This document shows, piece by piece, positions 14,171 to 34,375 of a stretch of DNA of 64,000 nucleotides. Source of the DNA: an uncultured Acidobacteriota bacterium (lineage in GTDB: Bacteria; Acidobacteriota; Thermoanaerobaculia; Multivoradales; UBA5704); NCBI GenBank assembly GCA_963700145.1, contig OY969474.1:3616001-3680000 (forward strand), given 5' to 3'. Within the stretch, counting starts at the first letter, position 1, and every line of letters begins with the position of its first letter. The position numbers and the translations under genes were made by a program. The notes beneath the pieces were generated by a model. It had not been told where the DNA came from, did not search any database, and worked only from the letters and a program-made list of their open reading frames with translations.

Positions 14171-16996
14171 ATGCACCAGCTTCGCCGCGCCTTCGTCCTT
14201 TCCACGCTGCTCGCCGCCGTCGCCGCGGCGGCCTTCGCCCAGACCACCGGCGGCATCGTCGGCCGCGTCACCGACGAGCAGGAGGGCGGCCTCCCCGGCG
14301 TCACCGTCGAGGCGCGCAGCCCGGCCCTCCAGGGGAGCCGCACCGCCACGACCGACGAGATCGGCTTCTACCGCCTGACGCTCCTGCCGCCCGGCGACTA
14401 CACCGTCAGCTTCACCCTCTCCGGCTTCGCCCCGGAGACCCGCTCCGGCGTTGCCGCGGCGCTCGCCAAGGACACCACCCTCAACGCGGTCCTGCGGCCG
14501 GCGGCTGCCGAGGAGATCACCGTCACCGCCGAAGTGCCGGTCGTCGACACCACCTCGACCAGCCTCGGCGCCAACCTCGACGCACGCGCCATCCAGACCC
14601 TGCCGACCGGCCGCAACTACTCGTCGGTCGTGCAGATCGCCCCCGGCGTCTCCTCCGACGCCCACCCCGAGAACACCGGCCAGTCCTCGATCACCGTCTA
14701 CGGCTCGACCGGCGCCGAGAACGTCTTCTACGTCGACGGCGTTAACACCACCGGCGTCGAGTACGGCTTCCAGGGCAAGGAGCTCAACTTCGAGTTCATC
14801 CAGGCGGTAGACGTCAAGACCGGCGGCTACGAGGCCGAGCTCGGACGCTCGACCGGCGGCATCATCAACGTCATCACCAAGAGCGGCGGCAACGAGTTCC
14901 ACGGCGACGTCTTCGCCTACCACGACGCCGACGGCCTGCAGACCAGCGCCAAGGAAGTGGTCTCGACCGGCGGCACCCAAGTGGGGTTCACACGCGAGGA
15001 CTACGGCTTCGACCTCGGCGGGTACCTGCTCAAGGACCGCCTCTGGTTCTTCGGCGCCTACGACAAGGTGGGCCACGACCTCGACAACTCGCTGCCGGCG
15101 CCGCGCGCAGGGCAGGTCGTGACCTCCGAGAGCGAGCGCGACCTGGCCGCCGCCAAGCTCACCTGGCGCGCCAGCGAGAACCACTCCTTCATCGGCAGCT
15201 TCTTCCAGGACCCGCGCGACGACACCGGTGCGATCAACGACGCCCAGCACACGCTCAACGGCGAGCCCTCGACCTTCACCGGCGTGCGCGGCTTCGGCGG
15301 CAAGGACTACGCGCTGCGCTACGAGGGCATCCTGGGCGGCGACTGGGTGCTCGCCGCGCAGGTGGCGCGGCACGAGGAGGAGAATTCGGTCGGGGGGACC
15401 GGCGCCGACGTCATCCAGTACCGCATCGTCGCCGAGGACTTCCTCCAGACCGGCGGCTTCGGCCTGGTGCAGACCAAGGACTTCCAGCGCGACTTCGCCG
15501 GGCTCTCGGCCACCCGCTTCCTCGGCCGGCACGAGCTCAAGGCCGGCTTCGAGACCGAGGACCAGGCCGCCGAGGTGGTGCGGCGCTTCTCCGGCGGCCA
15601 GCAGGTGGACGTCCACTCGGCCGGCGGCCGCAACGTCTACAGCCACTTCTACTGGACGACGCCCGACGCGACGATCACCAACGCCCCGATCTCAGCCCTC
15701 GTCGCCTCGCCCGAGCACGAGAACACCACCGTCTTCCTCCAGGACCGCTGGGCGGCGCGCCCGAACCTGACCTTCAACCTCGGCGTGCGCTGGGACCGCC
15801 AGGAGATCATCGACGCCTCGGGGGTCAAGCGGATCGACTTGAAGGACGACTACGCGCCGCGCCTGGGCTTCGTCTGGGACCCGAGCGGCGAGCACGCGAG
15901 CAAGCTCTTCGGCTCCTACGGCCGCTACTACGAGCAGCTCCCCATGGACCTGGTCATCCGCTCCTTCTCCTTCGAGCGGCAGGCGCGCATCTTCAACTTC
16001 GACCCGGTGGGGACGGCGCCCGACCCGGCGGCGGAGGCGGCGCTGCAGCGCGAGTCGGCGATCTTCGGCGGCTTCACCGAGCCGGTCCAGCCCGGCCTCG
16101 AGAACCAGTACATCAACGAGTACCTGCTCGGCTACGAGCGGCAGGTGCTGCCGGACGTGGCGGTGGGGATCAAGGGCATCTACCGCGACTACGGCCAGGT
16201 GGTCGAGGACTTCCTCTGCGCCGACGACGGCACCTACTGCATCGGCAACCCGGGCGAAGGGATCATGAGCCGAGTCTTCACCCTCGACTACGCGCAGACC
16301 TTCCCGGCGCCGGAGCCGAAGCGGGTCTTCAAGGGGGTGCAGCTCGACGCCACCAAGCGCTTCTCCAACAACTGGCAGGGGCTCGCCTCCTACCTCTACT
16401 CGAAGCTCGACGGGAACTTCGACGGCCTCTTCGCCCCCTTCACCAACATCGGCCCCGACCCCAACATCACCGCCGCCTACGACTACTTCGACTTCTTCAC
16501 CAACGGCAGCGACCTCTCGCGCATCACCAATGAAGGGCCGCTGTCAAACGACCGCCGGCACCAGTTCAAGGCCTCGGGCGTCTACTTCACCCCCTGGAAG
16601 CTCTCGGTCGGCGTCTCGGCCTACTACCGCACCGGCACCCCGGTCACCCGCTACGGCTACTCCGACATCTACGGCCGCTACGAGTTCTTCCTGACCAAGC
16701 GCGGCGCCGAGGGGCGGACCCCGGACACCTACGAGGCGGACGTCCACCTGGGCTACCCCTGGGAGGTGGGCCCGGTGACGGTGAACTTCCTCCTCGACGT
16801 CTTCAACATCCTCGACGCGCAGCGTCCGGTCCTGCTGGATCAAAGATGGGGCTTCGAGGAAGCCCACAACGACGACCCCACCCCGGCCAACCCGCCAGGC
16901 GATCCTGGGTCTGGGCCCCCTCGCCCACGCTACAAACAGCCGGTCCTGCGAACACCGCCGACCTCAGCGCGGATCGGGGTGCGGGTGAGCTTCTAG
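14171..16996 (+). CDS. TonB-dependent receptor, Oar-like, with carboxypeptidase-regulatory N-domain
   Basis: Signal peptide AFAQTTGGIVGRVTD; LPTGRNY; VKTGGYEAELGRSTGGIINVITKSGGNEFHG; C-terminal GVRVSF; RBS gaggagg. Confidence 0.92.
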   Translation: MHQLRRAFVLSTLLAAVAAAAFAQTTGGIVGRVTDEQEGGLPGVTVEARSPALQGSRTATTDEIGFYRLTLLPPGDYTVSFTLSGFAPETRSGVAAALAKDTTLNAVLRPAAAEEITVTAEVPVVDTTSTSLGANLDARAIQTLPTGRNYSSVVQIAPGVSSDAHPENTGQSSITVYGSTGAENVFYVDGVNTTGVEYGFQGKELNFEFIQAVDVKTGGYEAELGRSTGGIINVITKSGGNEFHGDVFAYHDADGLQTSAKEVVSTGGTQVGFTREDYGFDLGGYLLKDRLWFFGAYDKVGHDLDNSLPAPRAGQVVTSESERDLAAAKLTWRASENHSFIGSFFQDPRDDTGAINDAQHTLNGEPSTFTGVRGFGGKDYALRYEGILGGDWVLAAQVARHEEENSVGGTGADVIQYRIVAEDFLQTGGFGLVQTKDFQRDFAGLSATRFLGRHELKAGFETEDQAAEVVRRFSGGQQVDVHSAGGRNVYSHFYWTTPDATITNAPISALVASPEHENTTVFLQDRWAARPNLTFNLGVRWDRQEIIDASGVKRIDLKDDYAPRLGFVWDPSGEHASKLFGSYGRYYEQLPMDLVIRSFSFERQARIFNFDPVGTAPDPAAEAALQRESAIFGGFTEPVQPGLENQYINEYLLGYERQVLPDVAVGIKGIYRDYGQVVEDFLCADDGTYCIGNPGEGIMSRVFTLDYAQTFPAPEPKRVFKGVQLDATKRFSNNWQGLASYLYSKLDGNFDGLFAPFTNIGPDPNITAAYDYFDFFTNGSDLSRITNEGPLSNDRRHQFKASGVYFTPWKLSVGVSAYYRTGTPVTRYGYSDIYGRYEFFLTKRGAEGRTPDTYEADVHLGYPWEVGPVTVNFLLDVFNILDAQRPVLLDQRWGFEEAHNDDPTPANPPGDPGSGPPRPRYKQPVLRTPPTSARIGVRVSF

Positions 16997-17424
16997 TCGC
17001 CCAGCGGATTGCGCCAGCGCAAGCCTGGGAAGCGCGAGAAGTCGCCGTCAGTCGAGTGCAGCTCGCACTGATGTTCGATCGCCAGGGCGGCGAGATGAGC
17101 GTCGGTCGTGAGATTCCCTGCCGCGCCCAAGCTGCGTAGGAGGTCAAGTACGATGCCGGCGTGCCTCTCGCCGGGGTGCAGGATCGTCACTTGGGGACGC
17201 TCCAGCCAGGAGGCCACGATGTCGCAAGCCGCGGCAACGGGCAGCGGCTTGATGAGCACCTTGCGGTGCGTCGTGAGGCGAATGAAGCCCAGGACCACCG
17301 CCCACGCGAGGCTGACCGGCTCGTCGCCCGAGAGGAGCCCCTCCCACCAGAGCTTCGCCTCGGCATGCACCCGAGACTCGCGGTTGTAGGCGTGAATTAG
17401 GAGGCTGAGGTCCGGCAGGATCAC
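16993..17424 (-). CDS. vapC: VapC PIN-domain toxin
   Basis: MILPDLSLLIHAYN...GNLTTDAHLAALAIEH...STDGDFSRFPGLRWRNPL. Confidence 0.92.
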   Translation of the reverse strand: MILPDLSLLIHAYNRESRVHAEAKLWWEGLLSGDEPVSLAWAVVLGFIRLTTHRKVLIKPLPVAAACDIVASWLERPQVTILHPGERHAGIVLDLLRSLGAAGNLTTDAHLAALAIEHQCELHSTDGDFSRFPGLRWRNPLGD

Positions 17425-24953: not shown

Positions 24954-25068
24954 GTCATCCCGAGCGAGAGCGAGGGATCTGGGCGGGGGGCGGTGCGTGA
25001 AAGGCGCGGGTCCAGAAGGTGTCCGCGCCACCCCTGCCCCCAGATCCCTCGCTCTCGCTCGGGATGAC
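24954..25068. repeat. REP-like element, copy 4
   Basis: gtcatcccgagcgagagcgagggatctggg...cccagatccctcgctctcgctcgggatgac, filling the whole intergenic space. Confidence 0.9.
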
Positions 25069-26841
25069 ATGCGAGGCGGGCCGCCGCGGCCCCGGCCCCG
25101 GCTTTTTTCCCACCCGATCTTCCTCGCCCTCCTCCTCGCCCTCCCCCTCTTCGCCTGGGGCATCTCCTGGGGTCTCCCCAGCCGCCTCGGCTGGGCGGGC
25201 GACGAGATCATGCCGCGCGCCGTCGAGCAGGCCGCGCGCCGCGGCTTCGCCGGCGGCTGGCACACCAAGTACCCGCCCGTCCACTACATGGTCCTCGCCG
25301 CCCTCCACGCGCCGGTCCGCGCGCTCGCCGGCGACGACGTCTCGCCCGCCGAGCTCAATCACCGCCTGATCCTCGCCAGCCGCTGGCTCTCGGTCCTGAT
25401 GGCCCTCGGCGCCGTCTGGGCCGTCTACCGCGCGGCGCGCGAGCTGACCGACCGCCGCGGCGCCGCCCTCGCCGCCCTCGCCGTCGCGCTCGCGCCGCCC
25501 TTCGTCTACTTCGCCAAGACCGCCAACCCCGAGATGCCGATGCTCTTCTGGCTGGCGCTCTCCCTTTGGCTCTACCTCCGCGTCCTCCGCCGCCACCGCC
25601 TGCGCGACTGGCTCCTCCTCGCCGCCACTGCCGCACTCGCCGTCGGCTCCAAAGACCAGGCCTACGGCTTCTACCTCCTTGCTCCCCTCGCCCTCCTCCC
25701 CTCCCTAGCCCGCCACCGCCGCGCCGAAGGCAAGCCCGGCGGCCCAAGCACCCTCCTCGACCGCCGCGTCCTCCTAGCCGTCGCCGCCGGCCTCGTCGCC
25801 TTCGCTCTAGCCTTCAATCTGCCGGCGAACTGGCAAGGCTTCCAGCGCCATCTCAACACCCTAACCGGCGCCGGCGCCGCCTCCGAAGAGGCCCAGGAGT
25901 ACCCAGCCACCGTAGCCGGCCACCTAGCCAACCTGACCCAGAACCTCCGCCACCTGGTTTTCTGCCTAGGTGGGCCCCTCTTCGTCCTGACCGTGGCAGG
26001 CGCCGCCTTCGCCCTAGCCCGCCCCCGCGACCCGAGTCACCGCCGTCTCCTAGCCCTCCTCCTCCTAAGCCTCTCCTACACCGCCACCTTCCTAGCCCCT
26101 ATCCTTTTCAGCCGCGACCGCTACACCCTCCCGCTAGCCCTAGTCCTAACCCCCTGCGCCGGCGCACTTCTCACGCGCCTCCTCGCCAAGTCCCGCGGCT
26201 CAACTCACTACCTCCTCGCCGCCGCCCTGACCATCGTCTTCGCCTGGAGCGCCCTCCGCGCTGTCTCCGTCAACCGCCGCATGACCCACGACTCCCGCTA
26301 CCAAGCCGAGACCTGGCTCTCCACCCACCCCGGCCGCCCCATCGCCATAGGCCGCCCCAAACACGTCCCCCGCATCGCCCGCGTCGATTGGCGCAAAGTC
26401 CACCGCGCAGAAAACGCCCGGCACGTAGGCCGGGCGCTACGCAACGCCGACTACATCGTCATCAACGTAACCGACCTCCGCACCCCAGCCGAGCGACGCG
26501 TCTACGAAGAACTCCTCTCCGGCAACCTCGGCTACCACCTAGCCCATCGCTTCCGTTGGACCTCGAAGTGGGACGTCCTCTCAACGCGATGTGTCCTCAG
26601 CACCCTCGACCTGGTGAACCCGCACCTAGCCGTTTTTTCCAGGCAGGAGAAAACGGTGCCGGGCGGTTCGCGGGGTGCTCCTCCGGGGAGCTCTTCGCAA
26701 GCGCCGGCAATGTTCCTCGCAGGCCGCAGTCGATCCGGCGCGCAGCGAAGCGCAGCCGCGCGCCTCCCCGCGGCAGTCCTCTTGGCGCGCGGCGGTCCCC
26801 GGAGGAGCACCCCGCGAACCGCCCTCTCGCTAACCCCTTAG
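25069..26841 (+). CDS. GT-C (GT39/ArnT-like) membrane glycosyltransferase with repeat-derived C-terminal tail
   Basis: WGLPS..WAGDE, KYPPVHY, multiple TM helices, SKDQAY; last ~60 codons run through the 26661-26824 element. Confidence 0.8.
   Translation: MRGGPPRPRPRLFSHPIFLALLLALPLFAWGISWGLPSRLGWAGDEIMPRAVEQAARRGFAGGWHTKYPPVHYMVLAALHAPVRALAGDDVSPAELNHRLILASRWLSVLMALGAVWAVYRAARELTDRRGAALAALAVALAPPFVYFAKTANPEMPMLFWLALSLWLYLRVLRRHRLRDWLLLAATAALAVGSKDQAYGFYLLAPLALLPSLARHRRAEGKPGGPSTLLDRRVLLAVAAGLVAFALAFNLPANWQGFQRHLNTLTGAGAASEEAQEYPATVAGHLANLTQNLRHLVFCLGGPLFVLTVAGAAFALARPRDPSHRRLLALLLLSLSYTATFLAPILFSRDRYTLPLALVLTPCAGALLTRLLAKSRGSTHYLLAAALTIVFAWSALRAVSVNRRMTHDSRYQAETWLSTHPGRPIAIGRPKHVPRIARVDWRKVHRAENARHVGRALRNADYIVINVTDLRTPAERRVYEELLSGNLGYHLAHRFRWTSKWDVLSTRCVLSTLDLVNPHLAVFSRQEKTVPGGSRGAPPGSSSQAPAMFLAGRSRSGAQRSAAARLPAAVLLARGGPRRSTPRTALSLTP
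26661..26824 (+). repeat. ~165 nt long-stem element A (MITE-like or structured RNA)
   Basis: 29-bp perfect inverted arms (26661-26689/26796-26824); interior homologous to element B. Confidence 0.8.
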
Positions 26842-27575
26842 AGGAAGAGCCCCTGAATGGTCCCTTGGATTTCTTTCGCTTTTTGGTAGGGATCAGAAGC
26901 CTTCCGAATCGGCCGCCCCACCACGATGTAATCCGCCCCCGACAAAAACGCCTCCTCCACGCTAACCACCCGCTTCTGGTCATCCACAGCCCGGTTCTCC
27001 ACCGGCCGAATCCCCGGCACAACAACCAGAAGCTTCTCCCCAAGCTCCTCCCGCAGAGCCCGAGCCTCCAACCCAGAAGCCACCACCCCATCACACCCGA
27101 TCGCCAACGCCCGCCGCGCCCGCGACAACACCAACTCCTCCACGTCCACCCGAAACCCCAGATCCTCCAGGTCCCCCCGATCCAAGCTAGTCAGCGCCGT
27201 AACCGCCAGCACCTTCAACCCCTCCCCCCGCTCCCGGCAAGCCGCCTCCAGCATCCCGTCGTTCCCGTGCACCGTCGTCAGCGCGATCCCCCGCCCCGCC
27301 AGCCGCCGCACCGCCGCCCCCACCGTCTCCGGCACGTCGAACAGCTTGAAATCCGCGAACACCTTCGCGCCGCGCCCGTGCAGCCAGTCGATCAGCGCGA
27401 ACGCCTCGCCCGTCATGAACAGCTCCAGCCCCACCTTGTAGAACGACACAGCCTCGCGCAACGTCTCGACGAGCCGCCGCGCCTCCGCCACTTCGGGCAC
27501 GTCGAGGGCGAAGATCAACCGCTCTTCGGGGGGGATCTCCTTGGTCGAGAGGAAGTGCGGATCGGGCGCGCTCAC
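26838..27575 (-). CDS. pyrF: Orotidine-5'-phosphate decarboxylase
   Basis: LIFALD, YKVGLEL, FADFKLFDVPETV, VTALTS, VPGIRP, DDQKR, ADYIVVGRPI. Confidence 0.97.
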   Translation of the reverse strand: MSAPDPHFLSTKEIPPEERLIFALDVPEVAEARRLVETLREAVSFYKVGLELFMTGEAFALIDWLHGRGAKVFADFKLFDVPETVGAAVRRLAGRGIALTTVHGNDGMLEAACRERGEGLKVLAVTALTSLDRGDLEDLGFRVDVEELVLSRARRALAIGCDGVVASGLEARALREELGEKLLVVVPGIRPVENRAVDDQKRVVSVEEAFLSGADYIVVGRPIRKASDPYQKAKEIQGTIQGLFL

Positions 27576-27581
27576 GGCCCG

Positions 27582-29393
27582 CTAGGCTAGCAGCCGCGCC
27601 AGGTGCCCGGGGTCCACCGGCTTCGTCAGGTGCAGGTCGAAGCCCGCCTCGCGCGAGCGGCGGCGGTCCTCGTCGCGGCCGTAGCCGGTCACCGCGATGA
27701 GCCGCGCGTCGCGCGTCGTCGGGTCGCGCCGCAGCTCCTTCGCCACCGCGAAGCCGTCCATGCCGGGGAGCCCGAGGTCGCAGAGCACCACCTCCGGATG
27801 GAAGCGGCGCGCCGCCTCGACCCCCGCCGAGCCGTCGTAGGCGAGCGCCACCTTGTGACCGGAGAGCACCAGGAAGTCGCGCAGCGTGGCCGCCGCGTCC
27901 GGGTTGTCCTCGACCACCAGGATCCGCCGCGCGTGCCGCTCCTGCTCGGCCGGCCGCTCCGCCGCCGCCGCCGGCTCCGCGGCTTCGACCGGCAGCAGCA
28001 TCGTGAACTCCGCGCCGCGCCCCAGGCCCTCGCTCCGCACATCGACCTCGCCGCCGTGCAGCTCGACGAGCCCCTTCGCCACCGCCAGCCCCACCCCGAG
28101 GCCGCCCTTCGTCCGCTCCAGGCTGTGGTCGGCCTGGGTGAACGGCTCGAAGACGTGCGGCAGGATCTCCGGTCCGATGCCCATGCCGGTGTCGCGCACC
28201 ACGACCGCGGCGCGCCGGCCGCCGCCGTCGCGCGCCACCCGCACCGTCACACGGCCGCCGGCGCCGGTGAACTTGGCGGCGTTGCGCAGCAGCTTTTCGA
28301 GCGCCTGGCCGAGCCGCGCCCGGTCGCCCTGCACACCCAGCCGCTCGCGCGGCAGGTCCAGCGAGACGGTCAGCCCGGCCGCCTCCAGCGCCGGCCGCTC
28401 CCGCTCGACCGCGGCGCGCACCAGCTCCACCAGCTCGAGCGGCTCGCAATGCAGCTCGACCTCGCCGCGCGTCACCCGCTCCACCTCGAGCAGGTCGTCC
28501 ACCAGGGCGGCCTGGTGGCGCACCTGCCGCTCGGCGGTCTCGAGCGCCCGCCGCCGGGTCGGGTCGCCTTCCGAGCCGCTCAGCCGCAGCACCTGCAGGG
28601 CGTTGCTGATCGTCCCCAGCGGGTTGCGCAGCTCGTGCGCCAGCATCGCCAGGAACTCCTCCTGCCGCCGCTCGGCGCGCGCCAGGGCCGCGCGGTGCTC
28701 GGCCAGCCGCTCCTTCACCTCCTCGAGCTTGCGCTCGATGGCGCCCGCCCGCTCGAGCTGCTCCAGCATCCAGGCGGCACCGTCCTCGGGCGCGGCGTTG
28801 CCAAGCACCATCTCCGCCGGCTCGTAGTAGAAGTTGGCGCAGAGGCGGCGGCCGATCAGCGCCAGCGGGTGGGTGCGGAGGGCGCCGGTCTGGGTCTCGG
28901 GGGGGAAGCGGGAGAGGTCGTACTGGCAAAGGACGATGGCGAGGCTGTGCTCGACGAAGCGGTGGAGCCGCGCCTCGTAGCCGAGGAGCGGCGCCGCCGC
29001 GCCGGCGTCGAGCGGCGCGCCCCCCGACGAGGCGCCGATCACCCAGGCCAGGTCGATCGCCAGCCGCAGGCCGGGACGGCCGTCCTCGACGGCCTGTTGC
29101 TCGCACTGCCGGAGGAGGTCGAGGAGGGCGCCCGGGTCGAACCGGCCGCGGCCCTGGAGGTCGGGGTGGCTGTGGAGCGGGACCCAGCTGCCGTCGGCGG
29201 AGCCGGCGAGCCCGAGCTCCTGCTCGACGCGCCGGCAGTCGGCCTCGGCGGCGAGCAGGACGCAGCGCTCGCCGGCCGCCAAGCCTCCCTTGAAGAAGGC
29301 CACCTGCGCCGCGCGCTGCTCGGCGGCGCGCCGGAACATCTGGCAGAGGTGATCGCCCCGGCGCAGCCGTGCGATCCTGGTCTCGAGGTCCAA
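27582..29393 (-). CDS. Hybrid sensor histidine kinase (MEDS-HisKA-HATPase-REC)
   Basis: MEDS GDHLC...LCQYDL...LRTHP; LAHELRNPL; NAAKFT; DTGMGI; GLGVGL; receiver LVVEDN, CDLGLPGMDG, LTKP; TTG start inferred. Confidence 0.9.
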   Translation of the reverse strand: MDLETRIARLRRGDHLCQMFRRAAEQRAAQVAFFKGGLAAGERCVLLAAEADCRRVEQELGLAGSADGSWVPLHSHPDLQGRGRFDPGALLDLLRQCEQQAVEDGRPGLRLAIDLAWVIGASSGGAPLDAGAAAPLLGYEARLHRFVEHSLAIVLCQYDLSRFPPETQTGALRTHPLALIGRRLCANFYYEPAEMVLGNAAPEDGAAWMLEQLERAGAIERKLEEVKERLAEHRAALARAERRQEEFLAMLAHELRNPLGTISNALQVLRLSGSEGDPTRRRALETAERQVRHQAALVDDLLEVERVTRGEVELHCEPLELVELVRAAVERERPALEAAGLTVSLDLPRERLGVQGDRARLGQALEKLLRNAAKFTGAGGRVTVRVARDGGGRRAAVVVRDTGMGIGPEILPHVFEPFTQADHSLERTKGGLGVGLAVAKGLVELHGGEVDVRSEGLGRGAEFTMLLPVEAAEPAAAAERPAEQERHARRILVVEDNPDAAATLRDFLVLSGHKVALAYDGSAGVEAARRFHPEVVLCDLGLPGMDGFAVAKELRRDPTTRDARLIAVTGYGRDEDRRRSREAGFDLHLTKPVDPGHLARLLA

Positions 29394-29597
29394 CGTCCAC
29401 CCCCCGTGAGGGAGGGGTTGCCTTGCGCCGCGGGACTTCGTAGTGGCAACCCCTGGTGCGTTCCCGCGACGCAGGGAGCCAGGGGTGCAAGAACTGTGCG
29501 CGCCGGAAGTCGCGCAGACAGCGTGCTTTGGGCGGCACGCGGCATGCGGTGCGCAGCGCCGGGGGCGGCCCAAGCCAAGTCCCGTCGCGTGAGCGAT

Positions 29598-29669
29598 TTG
29601 ACGGGGGGCGCCCTCGCGCCCTAGAACGCCATTTATTGCTTGACAGAGCGCTGCATCACTGGCTAGAGT
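29598..29669 (+). promoter_or_regulatory. Two tandem sigma70-like promoters
   Basis: TTGACG-18-TAGAAC (29598-29627) and TTGACA-18-TAGAGT (29640-29669), upstream of the 29688 ORF. Confidence 0.55.
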
Positions 29670-29687
29670 TGCCGCAGGTGACGACAA

Positions 29688-31040
29688 GTGACGCGTGAGC
29701 GGCACCCGCCGCGCGAGGACCTCGAGCGCTTCCTGCGCGGCGAGCTGACGGCGGCCGAGAGCAAGGGCCTGGTCCGCCACCTCCTCGCCGGCTGCGCCGA
29801 CTGCCTCGGCGAGACGCGGCGCCTCTGGGGCGGCCGGCGGGGCGCGGCCGGCGCACCGGAGAGCGCGGCGCCGCCCGCCGGAGTCTACGGCGAGCTCTTC
29901 CGCAAGCTCTTCGCGCAAGGCCCGGCGCGCGAGGCGGCGGTGGCGCGCGACCTCGAGCGGGCGCCGCGCCTCGCCGCGGACCTCCTCCGCCACCCGCACG
30001 CGCGGCGCCTGACGCTCGTCGCCAACGCCGAGCGCTTCCGCAGCGTCGGCCTCTGCGAGCACCTCCTGGAGTCGGCGGCCGCTCTCTGGCGGGAGGACCC
30101 GCCGGCCAGCGCCGAGCTCGCCGAGGTGGCCGGCGCCGTGGCGCGGCGCCTCGACCCGCGCTGCGCCGGGCCGTCGCTCGCCGCCAGCCTCGAGGGGCGG
30201 GCCTGGGCCTACCGCGGCAACGCCCTGCGCCTCGCAGGCGACTTCGCCGTCGCCGAGGAGGCGCTGGCCCGCGCCGAGCCGCTCGTCGAGCACGGCAGCG
30301 GCGACCCGCTGGAGCGCGCCGAGCTCCACGCCCTGCGCGCCGCCCTCGCCGCCGACCGCGGCCGCCCCGCCGCCGCCCTCGCCCTCTACGACCGCGCCGC
30401 CCAGCTCTACCGCGCCCTCGCCGAGCGCCACGCCCTCGGCCGCACCCTGCTCGAAAAGAGCGCCGTCCCCGCGCCCGCCCTCGCCGAGGCGGCGCGCCTC
30501 GCCCTCCTGCGCGAGGGTGTCGGCCTCCTCGACGACCGCCTAGAGCCCCACCTCGCCGCCGCCGCCCACCACCGCCTAGTCGCCGGCCTCTTAGACGCCG
30601 GCCACCCCGGCGAGGCCCTCCTCTACCTCCAGAAAGCCCGGCTCCTCGACCGCAAGCAGGGCGACCGCGCAGGCCTCCTCCGCCTCCTGCGCCTGGAAGG
30701 CAAGATCGCCGAATCCCTGGACCGCCCCGAAGACGCCGAGCGCCTCCTCCTAGAAGCCTGGATCGGCCTCGTCGGCCTCAAGCTCGGCCAAGACGCCGCC
30801 ACCGTCACCCTCGACCTCGCCCGCCTCTACGCCCGCAACGGCCGCATCGCCGAGGCCCGCGGCTTGGCCCTCAAACTCTCCCCCCTCTTCCACGCCGAGG
30901 GCCTAGACCGCGGCGCCATCGTCGGCCTAGTCGTCCTCCGCCGCCTCCTGGAGACCGAATCCGCCAGCCCCCAGTTCCTAGCCGAGCTAGTCGGTTACTT
31001 CCGCCGCCCAACCCCGGCGCAGCTCCGCCAAGCCAGCTAA
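29688..31040 (+). CDS. TPR-like helical protein with N-terminal zf-HC2-like motif
   Basis: HPPREDLERFLRGEL...VRHLLAGCADC; RAWAYRGNALRLAGDF TPR-like repeats. Confidence 0.7.
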   Translation: MTRERHPPREDLERFLRGELTAAESKGLVRHLLAGCADCLGETRRLWGGRRGAAGAPESAAPPAGVYGELFRKLFAQGPAREAAVARDLERAPRLAADLLRHPHARRLTLVANAERFRSVGLCEHLLESAAALWREDPPASAELAEVAGAVARRLDPRCAGPSLAASLEGRAWAYRGNALRLAGDFAVAEEALARAEPLVEHGSGDPLERAELHALRAALAADRGRPAAALALYDRAAQLYRALAERHALGRTLLEKSAVPAPALAEAARLALLREGVGLLDDRLEPHLAAAAHHRLVAGLLDAGHPGEALLYLQKARLLDRKQGDRAGLLRLLRLEGKIAESLDRPEDAERLLLEAWIGLVGLKLGQDAATVTLDLARLYARNGRIAEARGLALKLSPLFHAEGLDRGAIVGLVVLRRLLETESASPQFLAELVGYFRRPTPAQLRQAS

Positions 31041-31067
31041 CAGGTCTTTGGATGCTGGGTGGGGGAA

Positions 31068-31232
31068 GCCCGGGGGTCGGGTGCCCCCGGCGGGAACCTC
31101 TGAGCGAGCGCCGGGCAACGCCCGCTGCATTCGACATCGACCCCGGCGCAAAGCGAAGCGGAGGCGCGAGCCCACCCCCCGCAATCCACAAGGCTCGCGC
31201 CGGTTCCCGCCGGGGGCACCCGACCCCCGGGC
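31068..31232 (+). repeat. ~165 nt long-stem element B (homologue of element A)
   Basis: 31-bp perfect inverted arms (31068-31098/31202-31232) between convergent genes. Confidence 0.8.
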
Positions 31233-31258
31233 GGGGCGGGGGGTCTTAGTTCCTTATC

Positions 31259-34200
31259 TCAGCCGGCCTGCTTCTTCTCCCACTCCTCCTTAGTCATCCA
31301 CTCCACCACCCCCCGCTTCTTGAGCTCCTCCGCCCGCGCAAACCCCGCCTCCAACCGCCCCTCCAGCACCTCAGCAAGCTCCACCTGCGACTGCGTAGGC
31401 CTCCCCTCGTAACTGTTCACCGCCCCGTACAGCAACCCCAACTTCTCCCGCAACTGCTCCTCCCCCGACAACCACCCCCCCGCCGACGTCGCCACCAGCT
31501 CCTTCCGCAGCCCCTCCCAATCCGCCGCCAGCTTCGTCGCCTTCTTCTTGTCCGCCTGCTCCTTGGCGTCCGTCACCGCGTCCGCCAGGTACGTCAGCCG
31601 CCCGAGCATCTCGTAGAGCCGCCACACCAGCTTCTCCTGCTCCTTGCGGTCCGCGTCGGCGTGGCGTGACCGCGGGTCGGCCACCAGCTCCACCTTCCCC
31701 GGGTACGTCTGGTCCCCCTTGACCACCTTGAACGTGTAGGCGCCGAGCGGCACTCGCGGCCCCAGCATCGCGTAACTGTTGAGCACCAGCGAGTTCGCCG
31801 GCGGCATCTTCGGGGGCTTGGCGCGCATCGGCCAGGACACCCGGTTGATCCCCTTCCGCTTGCCGCCGGGGAGCGTCGTCACCAGCTTCCCGTCGGCGTC
31901 GTAGACCTCGACCTTGAGGTCGCCGAAGAGGTGCCGCTTCTTGAGGTAGTAGACGATCGTCGCCTCCTCCGGCGGGTTGAAGGCCACGAACTCGTCGTCG
32001 CCGCCGAAACGCTGCCCCACCGACGGGATCGGCGCCGCCGTCGGCCGCGCCGCCAGCACCGCCACCTCCGCCTCCAGCACCTCGCGGGTGAGCTGACGGA
32101 GCGGGGTGATGTCGTCGAGGATGTAGATGCCCCGCCCGTGGGTGGCGACGATCAGGTCCGAGTCCCGCGGATGGACGACCAGGTCGCGCACCGCCACCTG
32201 GTCGGGGAAGTTGCCGGTGAAGCGCACCCAGCGGGCGCCGCCGTCGACCGAGATGAAGAGCCCGGTCTCGGTGCCCAGGAAGAGGAGGTCGCGGTTGACC
32301 GGGTCCTCCTCGACGACGTGGGCGTACCCGGTGACCGCGTCGGTCGCCAGCCCCTGCCAGCTCTTGCCGCCGTCGGTCGTCTTGAAGAGGTAGCTCTTCA
32401 TGTCGCCGCGCGCGTGGCCGTCGAAGGTGGCGTAGGCGGTCGCCGCGTCGTGCGCCGAGGCCTCGACGTGCGACACCCAGGTCCCCTTCGGCACCCCCGG
32501 CACGGCGGGCGCCGTGTCGGTCCAGGTCTTGCCGCCGTCGCGGGTCACCTGCAGGCGCCCGTCGTCGGTCCCGGCCCAGATCGTCTGCGGGTCCTTCGGC
32601 GACTCGGCGATCGAGTAGATCGTGGTGTGGTTCTCGGCCGTCGAGTTGTCGCGGGTCAGGCCGCCGGACTCGCGCTGCTTCTGCTTGGCCAGGTCGTTGG
32701 TCGTCAGGTCCGGCGAGATGCGCTCCCAGCTGTCGCCGCGGTCGCGCGAGCGGAAGAGGAACTGCGAGCCGAGGTAGACCGTCCCCTTCTGGCTCGGCGA
32801 GAGGTGGATCGGCGTGTTCCAGTTGAAGCGGAAGTCGGGCTCCCCCTTGCGCGGCTGCGGCTTGATGTCGCGCGCCTCGCCGGTCGTCATGTGGACCCGG
32901 CCGATGTTGCCGCCCTGGAACTCGACGTAGACGTAGTCCGGCTCCGCCGCGTCGCGGAAGGCGTGGAAGCCGTCGCCGAAGTAGAGGTCCTTCCAGTCGC
33001 GGCTGGCGACGCCGCCGGAAGAGCTCGAGGGCCCGGTCCAGGTGCCGTTGTCCTGCAGCCCGCCGTAGACGTTGTAGGGGAAGTCGAGGTCGTAGCTGAC
33101 CTCGTAGAACTGCGACACCGGCAGCGTCTCGACGAAGCGCCAGTGGTGGGCGCGGTCGTGCGAGACGTAGACCCCGCCGTCGGTGCCGAGGAGCATCTCG
33201 TGCGGGTTCTTGGGGTTGATCCAGAGCGCGTGGTGGTCGCCGTGGACCCCGAGGCTGAAGCCGCCGCCGGCGAACGGCGAGTTGAAGCTCTTGCCGCCGT
33301 CGGTCGAGATGGTCAAGGTCAGCCCGGGCTTGTAGACGTAGTCGTGGTCGGTCGGGTCGACGACGATGTGCGAGAAGTAGAAGGGCCGCATCTGGATATT
33401 GAACGAGGAGTTGACCTCCTCCCAGGTGTGGCCGGTGTCGTCCGAGCGGTAGAGCGCGGTCTTCTCGGCCTCGACGGTGGCGTAGACGACGCTCGGCCGC
33501 GACGGCGCCACCGCCACCGCGATCCGCCCCTTCTCCCCCTTGGGCAGGCCGGTCTCGAGCTTCTTCCAGGTCTCGCCGCCGTCGCTCGACTTGTAGAGGC
33601 CGCTCCCCTTGCCGCCGGAGTCGAACGACCAGGGGAAGCGCCGGAACTGCCACATGCCGGCGTAGAGAATGCGCGGGTCCTGCGGGTCGACCGAGAGGTC
33701 GGAGCAGCCGGTCTTGGCGTCGACGTGGAGCACCCGCTTCCAGCTCTTGCCGCCGTCGGTCGTCTTGTAGACGCCGCGCTCGTCGTGGTCGTCCCAGAGG
33801 TGGCCGGTGGCGCACACCCAGACGGTCTTGCCGTCCTTCGGGTTGACCTCGATGTCGGCGATCCGCTCGGACTGCTCGAGCCCCAGCCGCTGCCAGCTCT
33901 CGCCGCCGTCGGTCGTCTTGTAGACGCCGTCGCCGACCGAGACGCTGTTGCGGGTGCAGGACTCGCCGGTCCCCACCCAGACGGTCTTGGGGTCGCTCGG
34001 GTCGACGCGCACCGCGCCGATCGACTGCGCGTGGTCGTCGAAGACCGGCTTGAAGGAGACGCCGCCGTCGATCGACTTCCAGACCCCACCCGAGGCGGCG
34101 CCGACGTAGACCGTCAGCGGCGCGGCGGCCACCGCGTCGATGGCGGCGATGCGGCCGCTCATGACCGCCGGTCCGAGGGCGCGGGCGTCGAGGCCGCCGA

Positions 34201-34375
34201 AGGTCGCGGAATCGACCTCGGTGGCAACCGGTGCCGGCGCCGCCGGCTCGTCGGGCGCGGCGGGGACGGGAACCGCGGTCGGCGGCGGCGCGGGCGTCTG
34301 GGCCGCGGCCGCCGCCGGCGCGAGGGCGGCGAGGCAGGCCGTCAGGGCGAGGCGGGCGAGCGGTCGCGGGCGCAT
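31259..34375 (-). CDS. VPS10/BNR (Asp-box) beta-propeller glycosyl-hydrolase-like secreted protein
   Basis: GPAVMSGRI, repeated S/TxDGGxTW Asp-boxes, YGGLQDNGTW, RFNWNTP, ATHGRGIYILDD. Confidence 0.9.
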   Translation of the reverse strand: MRPRPLARLALTACLAALAPAAAAAQTPAPPPTAVPVPAAPDEPAAPAPVATEVDSATFGGLDARALGPAVMSGRIAAIDAVAAAPLTVYVGAASGGVWKSIDGGVSFKPVFDDHAQSIGAVRVDPSDPKTVWVGTGESCTRNSVSVGDGVYKTTDGGESWQRLGLEQSERIADIEVNPKDGKTVWVCATGHLWDDHDERGVYKTTDGGKSWKRVLHVDAKTGCSDLSVDPQDPRILYAGMWQFRRFPWSFDSGGKGSGLYKSSDGGETWKKLETGLPKGEKGRIAVAVAPSRPSVVYATVEAEKTALYRSDDTGHTWEEVNSSFNIQMRPFYFSHIVVDPTDHDYVYKPGLTLTISTDGGKSFNSPFAGGGFSLGVHGDHHALWINPKNPHEMLLGTDGGVYVSHDRAHHWRFVETLPVSQFYEVSYDLDFPYNVYGGLQDNGTWTGPSSSSGGVASRDWKDLYFGDGFHAFRDAAEPDYVYVEFQGGNIGRVHMTTGEARDIKPQPRKGEPDFRFNWNTPIHLSPSQKGTVYLGSQFLFRSRDRGDSWERISPDLTTNDLAKQKQRESGGLTRDNSTAENHTTIYSIAESPKDPQTIWAGTDDGRLQVTRDGGKTWTDTAPAVPGVPKGTWVSHVEASAHDAATAYATFDGHARGDMKSYLFKTTDGGKSWQGLATDAVTGYAHVVEEDPVNRDLLFLGTETGLFISVDGGARWVRFTGNFPDQVAVRDLVVHPRDSDLIVATHGRGIYILDDITPLRQLTREVLEAEVAVLAARPTAAPIPSVGQRFGGDDEFVAFNPPEEATIVYYLKKRHLFGDLKVEVYDADGKLVTTLPGGKRKGINRVSWPMRAKPPKMPPANSLVLNSYAMLGPRVPLGAYTFKVVKGDQTYPGKVELVADPRSRHADADRKEQEKLVWRLYEMLGRLTYLADAVTDAKEQADKKKATKLAADWEGLRKELVATSAGGWLSGEEQLREKLGLLYGAVNSYEGRPTQSQVELAEVLEGRLEAGFARAEELKKRGVVEWMTKEEWEKKQAG

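Follow-up and report, generated by a model that had tools for sequence, protein, structure and literature searches.

In the genome of an uncultured Acidobacteriota bacterium we have found that most copies of a small hairpin repeat, here called family 1, are flanked on both sides by halos in which the strand that carries the repeat in its sense orientation is strongly depleted in G, and that the sign of this bias follows the orientation of the repeat. The genome (G000) is a single contig (OY969474.1) of 5,455,767 bp with 71.5% G+C, and the window analysed here is the stretch of 64,000 nucleotides (nt) at positions 3,616,001-3,680,000. It contains two copies of the repeat, elements A and B, whose skewed tracts are two among about 30 such halos in the genome. 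A preliminary description of the window had proposed a persistent loss of C from the minus strand near these elements through exposure of single-stranded DNA and deamination, which would amount to a site-anchored local mutator. We consider, with a probability of about one half, that the halos are mutational footprints of a recurrent transaction tied to the element that would expose its antisense strand, probably as a gap in the opposite strand.

Halos follow the orientation of the repeats

A profile search of the 5.46-Mb genome identified 41 copies of family 1 (16 in the + and 25 in the - orientation). When all of them were turned to one orientation and GC skew was read on the element-sense strand, the mean skew lay between -0.15 and -0.26 from about -1000 to +1000 and was zero past ±1500. 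Both 800-nt flanks were below -0.15 in 25 of the 41 copies and both above +0.15 in none, compared with a single case among 868 control gene junctions, at least 3 kb away from elements, in which both flanks were past 0.15 with the same sign (Fisher p 6e-37). Furthermore, none of the 137 convergent junctions free of elements showed a comparable skew in both flanks. Conversely, an element lies no further than 600 nt from 33 of the 53 tracts whose absolute skew is above 0.25, and in all 33 the sign matches its orientation; among tracts of at least 1000 nt at this threshold 19 of 20 contain an element. With a laxer threshold of 0.20 an element was found in 42 of 158 tracts and in 32 of the 50 long ones, and the sign rule held in 40 of 42. 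At a resolution of 100 nt the profile over the 30 copies classed as halo-bearing is a symmetric bell that peaks at 300-400 nt on the left side (-0.30) and at 200-300 nt on the right (-0.35) and has faded by about -1000 and +1300. The anchoring of the bias on the long-stem elements, which had been described from the window only, is a genome-wide property, and so is its dependence on their orientation. None of the outcomes named with the preliminary description as refuting it (an equal skew at convergent ends without elements, independence of orientation, an assembly artefact) was observed. The only long tract above 0.25 without an element (2347701-2348800) has a skew of +0.47 and 81% G+C, and the 18 long tracts above 0.20 that have no copy of family 1 or of a second family described below may hold further families or lost copies.

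The halos are independent of the direction of transcription and of replication. The genes around the 41 copies (E) are arranged as <E< in 15 cases, >E> in 14, >E< in 9 and <E> in 3, and halos were found in all four arrangements. The bias resides mainly at third codon positions, whose baseline on the coding strand of G000 is 0.40 G and 0.52 C. Read on the element-sense strand, third-position G drops inside the halos from 0.40 to 0.20 in same-sense genes, with C at 0.62-0.74 and A up to 0.13, and from 0.53 to 0.28 in opposite-sense genes, with C rising from 0.39 to 0.65; the skew of positions 1 and 2 changes by only about 0.1. A transcription-associated asymmetry was therefore rejected, since the shift keeps its sign and its size whichever way the genes run, and independence of gene direction had already been noticed in the window. 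Replication-associated skew was rejected as well, because opposite halos lie only 3.5 kb apart at copies 2318235 (+) and 2321898 (-), and because the cumulative GC skew of G000 is nearly flat, with almost no replication skew genome-wide. Element orientation showed no replichore pattern, whether the origin was placed by gene-strand bias or at dnaA; taking dnaA (3.47 Mb) as the divide, the + and - copies split 9:18 and 7:7, the origin itself not having been located.

In the window, the GC skew of the + strand (600-nt windows) is -0.28 to -0.39 over 25201-27400 and -0.17 to -0.33 over 30001-31800, and in genome coordinates the tracts peak at -0.42 (A, 2500 nt) and -0.34 (B, 1600 nt). Genome-wide the skew has a mean of 0.002, a standard deviation of 0.077 and a 0.1% quantile of -0.30, so that both tracts are 4-5 standard deviations off the mean and are real, as described. 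The features concerned are the following (window coordinates unless otherwise stated):

26661..26824, + strand: element A, family 1, a 28-31-bp outer stem around a conserved asymmetric core; covariance-model match at 3642661-3642824 of the genome, 154.7 bits; nhmmer copy at 3642643-3642837 of the genome
31068..31232, + strand (orientation as A): element B, family 1, with 31-nt arms that are 100% complementary; nhmmer copy at 3647059-3647225 of the genome
25000..26660: left halo of A, within the + strand PMT_2-type gene; + strand G-poor and C/A-rich, skew -0.22 to -0.45 (400-nt windows)
26825..27600: right halo of A, within the 3' part of the - strand pyrF; + strand G-poor, skew -0.39 to -0.43 at 26800-27400
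30200..31067: left halo of B, within the + strand TPR gene; skew -0.17 to -0.28, 7 CTA codons, 10.1 CTAG per kb
31233..31800: right halo of B, within the 3' end of the - strand Sortilin-Vps10/BNR gene; skew -0.24 to -0.33
24997..26841, + strand: PMT_2-type glycosyltransferase gene (Pfam PF13231, E 1.6e-16)
26838..27575, - strand: pyrF, orotidine 5'-phosphate (OMP) decarboxylase (Pfam PF00215, E 3.4e-44)
29688..31040, + strand: TPR-repeat protein gene (Pfam TPR_12 and TPR_2, both under the curated cut-offs)
31259..34375, - strand: Sortilin-Vps10/BNR repeat protein gene (Pfam PF15902, E 1.4e-37)
L024 3830-5720 of the related species G004 (orthologous to window 31040-31250): 1.9-kb stretch in the place of element B, in which lies a Peptidase_M10-like gene (575 aa) whose composition is ordinary

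The hand counts of CTA codons made earlier proved exact: CTA accounts for 16 of the 51 Leu codons in 25702-26641 and occurs 7 times in 30351-31040, compared with 1.27% of 159,307 Leu codons genome-wide. The latter figure, like the third-position values of the halos and their baseline, rests on crude gene calls by a custom caller (3199 genes covering 77% of the genome), which misses some genes, including the TPR gene. CTAG reaches 7.8 and 10.1 per kb in the left flanks of A and B vs 0.49 genome-wide. The two minus-strand genes, whose earlier naming as pyrF and VPS10 is upheld by Pfam, change toward their 3' ends. The coding strand of pyrF has 0.13 C, 0.61 G and 0.21 T at position 3 of its final 300 nt vs 0.33, 0.62 and 0.03 in its initial 300 nt, and TTG makes up 5 of 17 Leu codons in the final 400 nt of the Sortilin-Vps10/BNR gene vs 1 of 58 in the remainder. 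The weaker tracts also mentioned in the preliminary description (13.4-14.0, 41.3-41.6 and 54.1-54.8 kb) exist, although they are mostly unremarkable (skew -0.12 to -0.16, at the 1st-5th genome percentiles) and contain no copy of either element family. Two side observations in the window are that the open frame of the PMT_2-type gene reads on through element A (26641-26841), gaining roughly 65 codons, and that 16401-17000 has a skew of -0.19, just past the 1% genome quantile, with no element close by.

Elements A and B have a common core of about 150 nt, and the repeat is about 165-190 nt long. Among the aligned copies the sequence of the outer stem (28 bp) varies freely while its pairing is kept, and 26 of 47 predicted stem pairs have changed on both sides with pairs of the G-U type nearly absent, which points to pairing being maintained in the DNA itself. 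The core inside the stem is conserved and asymmetric. The predicted folding energy of element A as single-stranded DNA is -76.5 kcal/mol (z -9.7), and a strand difference in hairpin stability was rejected as the source of polarity, as the predicted folds of the two strands are equally stable (-76.5 vs -77.6 kcal/mol); the polarity of the halos must then come from the core sequence. Neither element A nor element B matches an Rfam family up to an E value of 1, and on a neighbouring palindrome there are only chance microRNA-like matches. This separate palindromic repeat (window 24954-25068), whose 37-nt arms are 92% complementary, was located by BLAST search at 109 loci of the genome, of which 28 are within 400 nt of a long-stem element, and none of its 76 loci far from elements has a halo. 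A second hairpin family of similar build (variable outer stem and conserved core, about 185-200 nt, 20 copies that are 80-89% alike) was spotted at the centre of two halos without a family-1 copy; only about 4-6 of its 20 copies have halos, with the same sign rule. Examples of its loci are 4624720-4624990 and 5152100-5380.

Among 151 genomes of the class the covariance model detects family 1 in 27, counting G000; these belong to a single order (families f5, f8, f9 and f10), and the family was not found in three sampled other genera of G000's own family. In one genus of family f8 (g18, L123-L137) the model finds 1-5 copies per genome whose best loci are halo-less, and there the core is well conserved between species while the loci are mostly different. 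No Y1 transposase (PF01797) was matched in G000, although the same search was positive in 6 of 14 control genomes, and none of its three reverse-transcriptase genes (474447, 1963756 and 4151947; open frames of 531-558 aa) adjoins an element copy. A cargo or transposase between paired copies was also considered and rejected, as the open frames there, not searched against family libraries, resemble ordinary host genes; one of them, judged by eye, starts like an SMC protein.

Relatives and recent substitutions

Four other species of the genus (G001-G004) were compared, for which identity outside the halos gives the tree ((((G000,G004),G001),G003),G002). The flanks of the elements are syntenic host genes with 76-92% identity in these congeners, and at the pyrF site both the element and the halo are present in G003 and G004. 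In 10 other genera of the family, however, the final 300 nt of pyrF are normal, with position-3 C of 0.39-0.65 and T of at most 0.05 (0.15 in one genome), so the re-coding of this gene arose within the lineage of G000's genus, to which it is restricted. This agrees with the earlier view that the proteins stay intact and that the host genes were re-coded in place.

Presence and absence of elements differ among the species. At site B, G004 has a 1.9-kb stretch in place of the element, with flanks 96-97% identical to those of G000. G002 has only 8 family-1 copies by the covariance model, and its halos are weak: at site 1639695 the element is present with a halo of -0.10 / -0.10 (left/right), and neither element nor halo exists at 1644489, where G000 has both, or at 5146287, where both G000 and G003 have both (the halo of G003 being 0.24-0.275; G002 and G003 were judged here from composition tables). 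The halo-less copies tend to be young. Copy 1050730 is found in G000 only, 815913 is common only to G000 and G001 with a remnant in G004, and 955588 is 95% like the G004 ortholog of another copy; these three and 2996070 are all absent from G002, while 2996070 and 1429189 are also present in G003. Copy 2996070 provides a clean 215-nt difference between G000 and G004, with a repeat of at most 2 nt at the joints, three other cases being messy or unalignable. Next to copy 1429189 there is a 2.1-kb stretch (1427040-1429184) with a G+C of 0.65 that is absent in all four congeners.

Recent substitutions were obtained from the differences between G000 and G004, polarised with G001 or else with G003, in six regions with 10 halo-bearing copies. 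The spectrum excludes the elements themselves as well as the flanks of 11 copies that had been classed as paired or as lacking a halo, leaves out 750-2500 nt where near and far sites are compared, and is expressed per ancestral base on the element-sense strand. Within 750 nt of the elements G>A exceeded C>T (141/6208, 0.0227, vs 140/10768, 0.0130; odds ratio 1.76, p 3e-6), G>C exceeded C>G (130/6208, 0.0209, vs 114/10768, 0.0106; odds ratio 2.0, p 1e-7) and C>A exceeded G>T (99/10768, 0.0092, vs 23/6208, 0.0037; odds ratio 2.5, p 3e-5), and at 2500 nt or more the three pairs were symmetric (p 0.16-0.68). At third positions near the elements the corresponding figures were 51/1316 G>A vs 65/3978 C>T, 65/1316 G>C vs 68/3978 C>G, and 56 C>A vs 2 G>T. 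The equal counts of G>C and C>G at this position mean that the skew is stationary and not a decaying fossil; it is maintained today. The main net compositional change is from G to C at third positions, and recent branches show an excess of G>C and C>A beside G>A, so that deamination alone, as first proposed, does not account for the halos.

Compared with distant sites, C>A is 2.7-fold and G>A 1.8-fold more frequent near the elements, A>G and A>C are also up, and the exchange between G/C and A/T at position 3 is about 1.6-1.7 times faster as calculated from the spectrum counts. Total substitutions per branch-site amount to 0.034 within 750 nt vs 0.026 far away (1.3-fold) and, over 400 nt on the left side, to 0.052 (2-fold); the identity between G000 and G004 is 0.909 in halos A and B vs 0.954 outside (9.1% vs 4.6% diverged). 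The rate is therefore raised, as the term local mutator implied, but so modestly that the term overstates it, and the large compositional effect comes from time. A four-state projection with the near-element rates takes about 8 terminal-branch units to arrive at half of the equilibrium skew, the G002 split lying about 3.9 units back, and is compatible with the halos being old. On the antisense strand the rise of C>T was 1.8 times in the context A[C], 1.35 in C[C], 1.5 in G[C] and 2.8 in T[C], with small counts that are confounded by codon structure. CCTAG is 11-fold enriched in the halos, its mirror CTAGG only 2-fold, and the excess of CCTGG>CCTAG is 13-fold. Hot spots of 5-methylcytosine were rejected as its origin, since no match to a C5 cytosine methyltransferase (PF00145) or to Vsr (PF03852) was found in G000 and since the change of CTG to CTA Leu codons, CTA being otherwise rare, accounts for the excess. 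The loss of G from one strand, which is always the same one relative to the repeat, points to a local strand-specific mutation process.

Origin of the halos

The hairpin repeats may mark sites at which the complement of the element-sense strand is repeatedly single-stranded over a few hundred bases on each side. The likeliest form of this would be a gap in the sense strand, or its excision and resynthesis, during a strand-specific transaction of the element such as nicking, insertion and excision, or repair (for example long-patch repair) of the extruded hairpin. A nick or excision in the sense strand would be widened both ways and then refilled, and the trigger might be a factor able to read the asymmetric core. 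The classes raised on the antisense strand, C>T, C>G and G>T, are those expected from damaged C and G in single-stranded DNA; once such damage was copied, the sense strand would show G>A, G>C and C>A. Purifying selection would preserve the proteins, so that the changes would gather at silent positions, and over a time like that of the diversification of the genus one strand would come to have C/A-ending codons and the other G/T-ending codons.

Other ways of exposing one strand make predictions that differ from the observed profile. Resection of a two-ended break was excluded because it would expose opposite strands on the two sides, in contrast to the same-sign profile, and a bidirectional origin because the sign would flip at the centre. 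Rolling-circle copying, suggested earlier, or transfer from a nick was excluded because it predicts a one-sided tract and not a two-sided bell; lagging-strand exposure at forks and transcription of the flanking genes, including the R-loops also suggested earlier, would depend on the direction of replication and of the genes, respectively, and such patterns were not seen.

Several observations weigh against the sense-strand gap account, and in particular against the element as the cause. The evidence from the spectrum is partly circular, as copies were chosen by skew and rates were then measured there, and a stationary skewed composition gives rise to a per-base rate asymmetry whatever its cause; the only findings that do not depend on how the copies were chosen are the equal counts, the raised total rate and the excess of C>A. 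At six halo-less copies the spectrum of recent branches is only weakly asymmetric, with few events, and the asymmetry is alike with and without the element: G>A and C>T number 25 vs 14 on the element-lacking G004 branches and 52 vs 33 on the element-bearing ones. About 8-11 of the 41 family-1 copies and at least 14 of the 20 family-2 copies have no halo. Age as the sole determinant was rejected, because the halo-less copy 2996070 and the halo-bearing 5146287 are distributed alike among relatives (present in G003 and absent from G002), so that age alone is insufficient for a halo. Moreover, the projection under-predicts site 5146287, which has reached -0.3 to -0.4 since the G002 split. In other families of the order both flanks were below -0.15 in none of the 19 best loci from 19 genomes, and one of these halo-less loci is common to two genomes at 82% identity. 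Finally, G002 has halos without an element at three sites: at pyrF, where the PMT_2-type gene and pyrF converge with their ends about 14 nt apart and the skew nevertheless goes down to -0.39, at 2318235 (-0.20 / -0.26) and at the family-2 site 5152100 (-0.28 / -0.15). We read these as losses of the element, but a single gain is equally parsimonious.

These element-less halos, together with old halo-less copies, do not fit the simple residence of the element as the cause. The element may be the cause of the halos or a marker of their sites. Repeated insertion and excision at preferred sites could leave the halo as a scar, present occupancy being incidental, which would reconcile both misfits. 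We advance more tentatively the wider proposal that family 1 is a mobile hairpin family whose core serves as the address of a host or element factor that repeatedly opens or nicks one strand. Each copy, or each preferred site by way of recurrent insertion and excision, would thus be a natural, site-anchored and strand-specific source of mutation that re-codes about 2 kb of neighbouring essential genes over evolutionary time.

An alternative, which we find rather unlikely, is that the sites come first: places prone to strand-specific exposure of single-stranded DNA would draw the elements, which would insert into the exposed strand in one orientation in the manner of single-strand transposons, and the halo would then be the cause of the element's presence. 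The halos without an element in G002, at 3 of 6 orthologous sites scored in a species with so few copies, agree with this, as do the several long-resident copies that are halo-less and the location of half of the copies in roughly 1% of the genome, which a strong target preference would yield. However, the centre of the halos has no feature other than the element, the G002 pyrF site being a mere 14-nt junction of converging genes, and the long strong tracts of G000 are occupied with a single exception. The two sites that have neither halo nor element in G002 have both in relatives, which would require two successive events. In addition, pyrF is halo-less in the 10 other genera, three of which were screened by the covariance model and have no element, and element-like DNA was found only in G001-G004 in the comparison.

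Selection on composition is improbable too. Here the G-poor flanks of the sense strand would be functional, for instance as unstructured RNA or single-stranded DNA for the folding of the hairpin, or for loading a factor that binds C-rich and G-poor RNA. The stationary state of the skew at third positions would fit, and C>G is less frequent near the elements than far from them (odds ratio 0.73, p 0.003), as fixation bias predicts; by arithmetic on the spectrum counts, the rates of G>C and C>G lie between the expectations of pure mutation bias and pure fixation bias. Against it, the total substitution rate is up and not down, the rises of C>A, A>G and A>C are not predicted by selection against G, and the skew of positions 1 and 2 also moves, at a cost to the proteins. 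Furthermore, the flanks are transcribed from either strand, so that no single RNA gains, and resident halo-less copies persist.

A still smaller chance is left to R-loops in which a leftward antisense RNA across the element would form a stable hybrid with the sense strand, rich in C, and so push out the G-rich antisense strand, the skew being self-reinforcing. The damage classes fit an exposed antisense strand, and the composition of the halos, with a G-rich displaced strand, is of the R-loop-favouring kind, as for CpG islands in the text available from a 2023 review (PMC10030826). But halos are equally strong at the 14 copies with both flanking genes in the sense direction, the transcript would need a start within a gene some 1 kb to the right and an end some 1 kb to the left, and the symmetric bell centred on the element differs from the block with a start and an end that such a transcript predicts. 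An artefact of assembly or polishing, considered from the outset, or a foreign origin of the flanks can be practically dismissed: the pyrF-site halo is reproduced in the assemblies of G002, G003 and G004, short-read contigs of soil run X1, which may be the sample from which the window DNA came, are identical to the window over 25512-25861, 27226-27563 and 30482-31013, and the flanks are the syntenic host genes already mentioned.

Where mutation rates vary locally in bacteria, the usual explanations are replication, transcription or sequence context. Here a small repeat marks kilobase-scale, strand-specific footprints in which housekeeping genes such as pyrF have had their silent sites, and in part their amino acids, rewritten. 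Should the cause be the repeat or the chemistry of its transposition, the halos would be a natural model of targeted, strand-specific mutagenesis, and selfish hairpin repeats would be seen to have a new cost or a new function. In that case they would also call for caution in the detection of horizontal transfer by codon usage, as native genes would look foreign. As a record of long-term single-strandedness, they may allow the DNA transactions of an uncultured lineage to be read from sequence alone.

Comparison with known systems

In full-text literature searches judged at the level of abstracts, no description of a repeat-anchored flanking skew in bacteria was found. The part of the 2023 review of strand asymmetries available to us treats replication, transcription, deaminase clusters and the orientation preferences of repeats, not halos anchored on repeats (PMC10030826). 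The elements themselves resemble REPINs with their RAYT and the IS200/IS605 family in being short hairpin repeats that have strand polarity, occur in many copies and lie mostly between genes. One presence/absence difference, the only clean one among four cases, is without an evident long target duplication, as would be expected of the 'peel and paste' elements of IS200/IS605. Unlike the REPIN/RAYT system, G000 has no Y1 transposase gene, and unlike in REP doublets it is the arms that vary and the core that is conserved; unlike IS200/IS605, there is no orientation bias with replication, the 16 + and 25 - copies being mixed along the chromosome. For REPINs and IS200/IS605 elements no report of flanking halos was found in the literature at the abstract level.

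With respect to known mutagenic systems, template switching at quasipalindromes would explain how the arms change jointly and stay perfectly paired, but its action is confined to the palindrome and it makes no prediction about the flanks. A diversity-generating retroelement, which would make adenine-specific changes in a target repeat beside a reverse transcriptase, was rejected because the changes are at G and C and because the reverse-transcriptase genes (0.47, 1.96 and 4.15 Mb) are away from the halos. Kataegis is similar in that C>T and C>G accumulate on one strand over about a kilobase. The halos differ from it in having no strict context, with a 1.35- to 2.8-fold rise in all four 5' contexts, in the additional rise of G>T on the same strand, in being a steady state on a slow, evolutionary time scale where kataegis is one burst, and in recurring at the same sites in several species. 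Clusters made by enzymatic deaminases (APOBEC/AID-like or DddA-like) were rejected accordingly, since these are confined to a short context and all four contexts are raised here.

The skew linked to R-loops at CpG-island promoters and immunoglobulin switch regions is also local, on the scale of kilobases, and tied to the exposure of one strand, and as in that case skew and exposure could reinforce each other; the halos differ in that their sign is independent of the direction of the flanking genes and the tract is two-sided around a hairpin. In replication-associated and mitochondrial asymmetry, one strand is G+T-rich and the other C+A-rich, mainly at silent sites, and this is blamed on damage to the strand that is single-stranded for longer. 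The same attribution is made in the consulted part of the review (PMC10030826). The halos share with bacterial GC skew and with the asymmetry between heavy and light strands of vertebrate mitochondria the opposition of G+T and C+A strands, whatever the gene direction and mainly at silent sites. Unlike replication-associated asymmetry, however, they are local (about 2 kb), are centred on a repeat of 165-190 nt, have the same sign on both sides and follow the orientation of that repeat.

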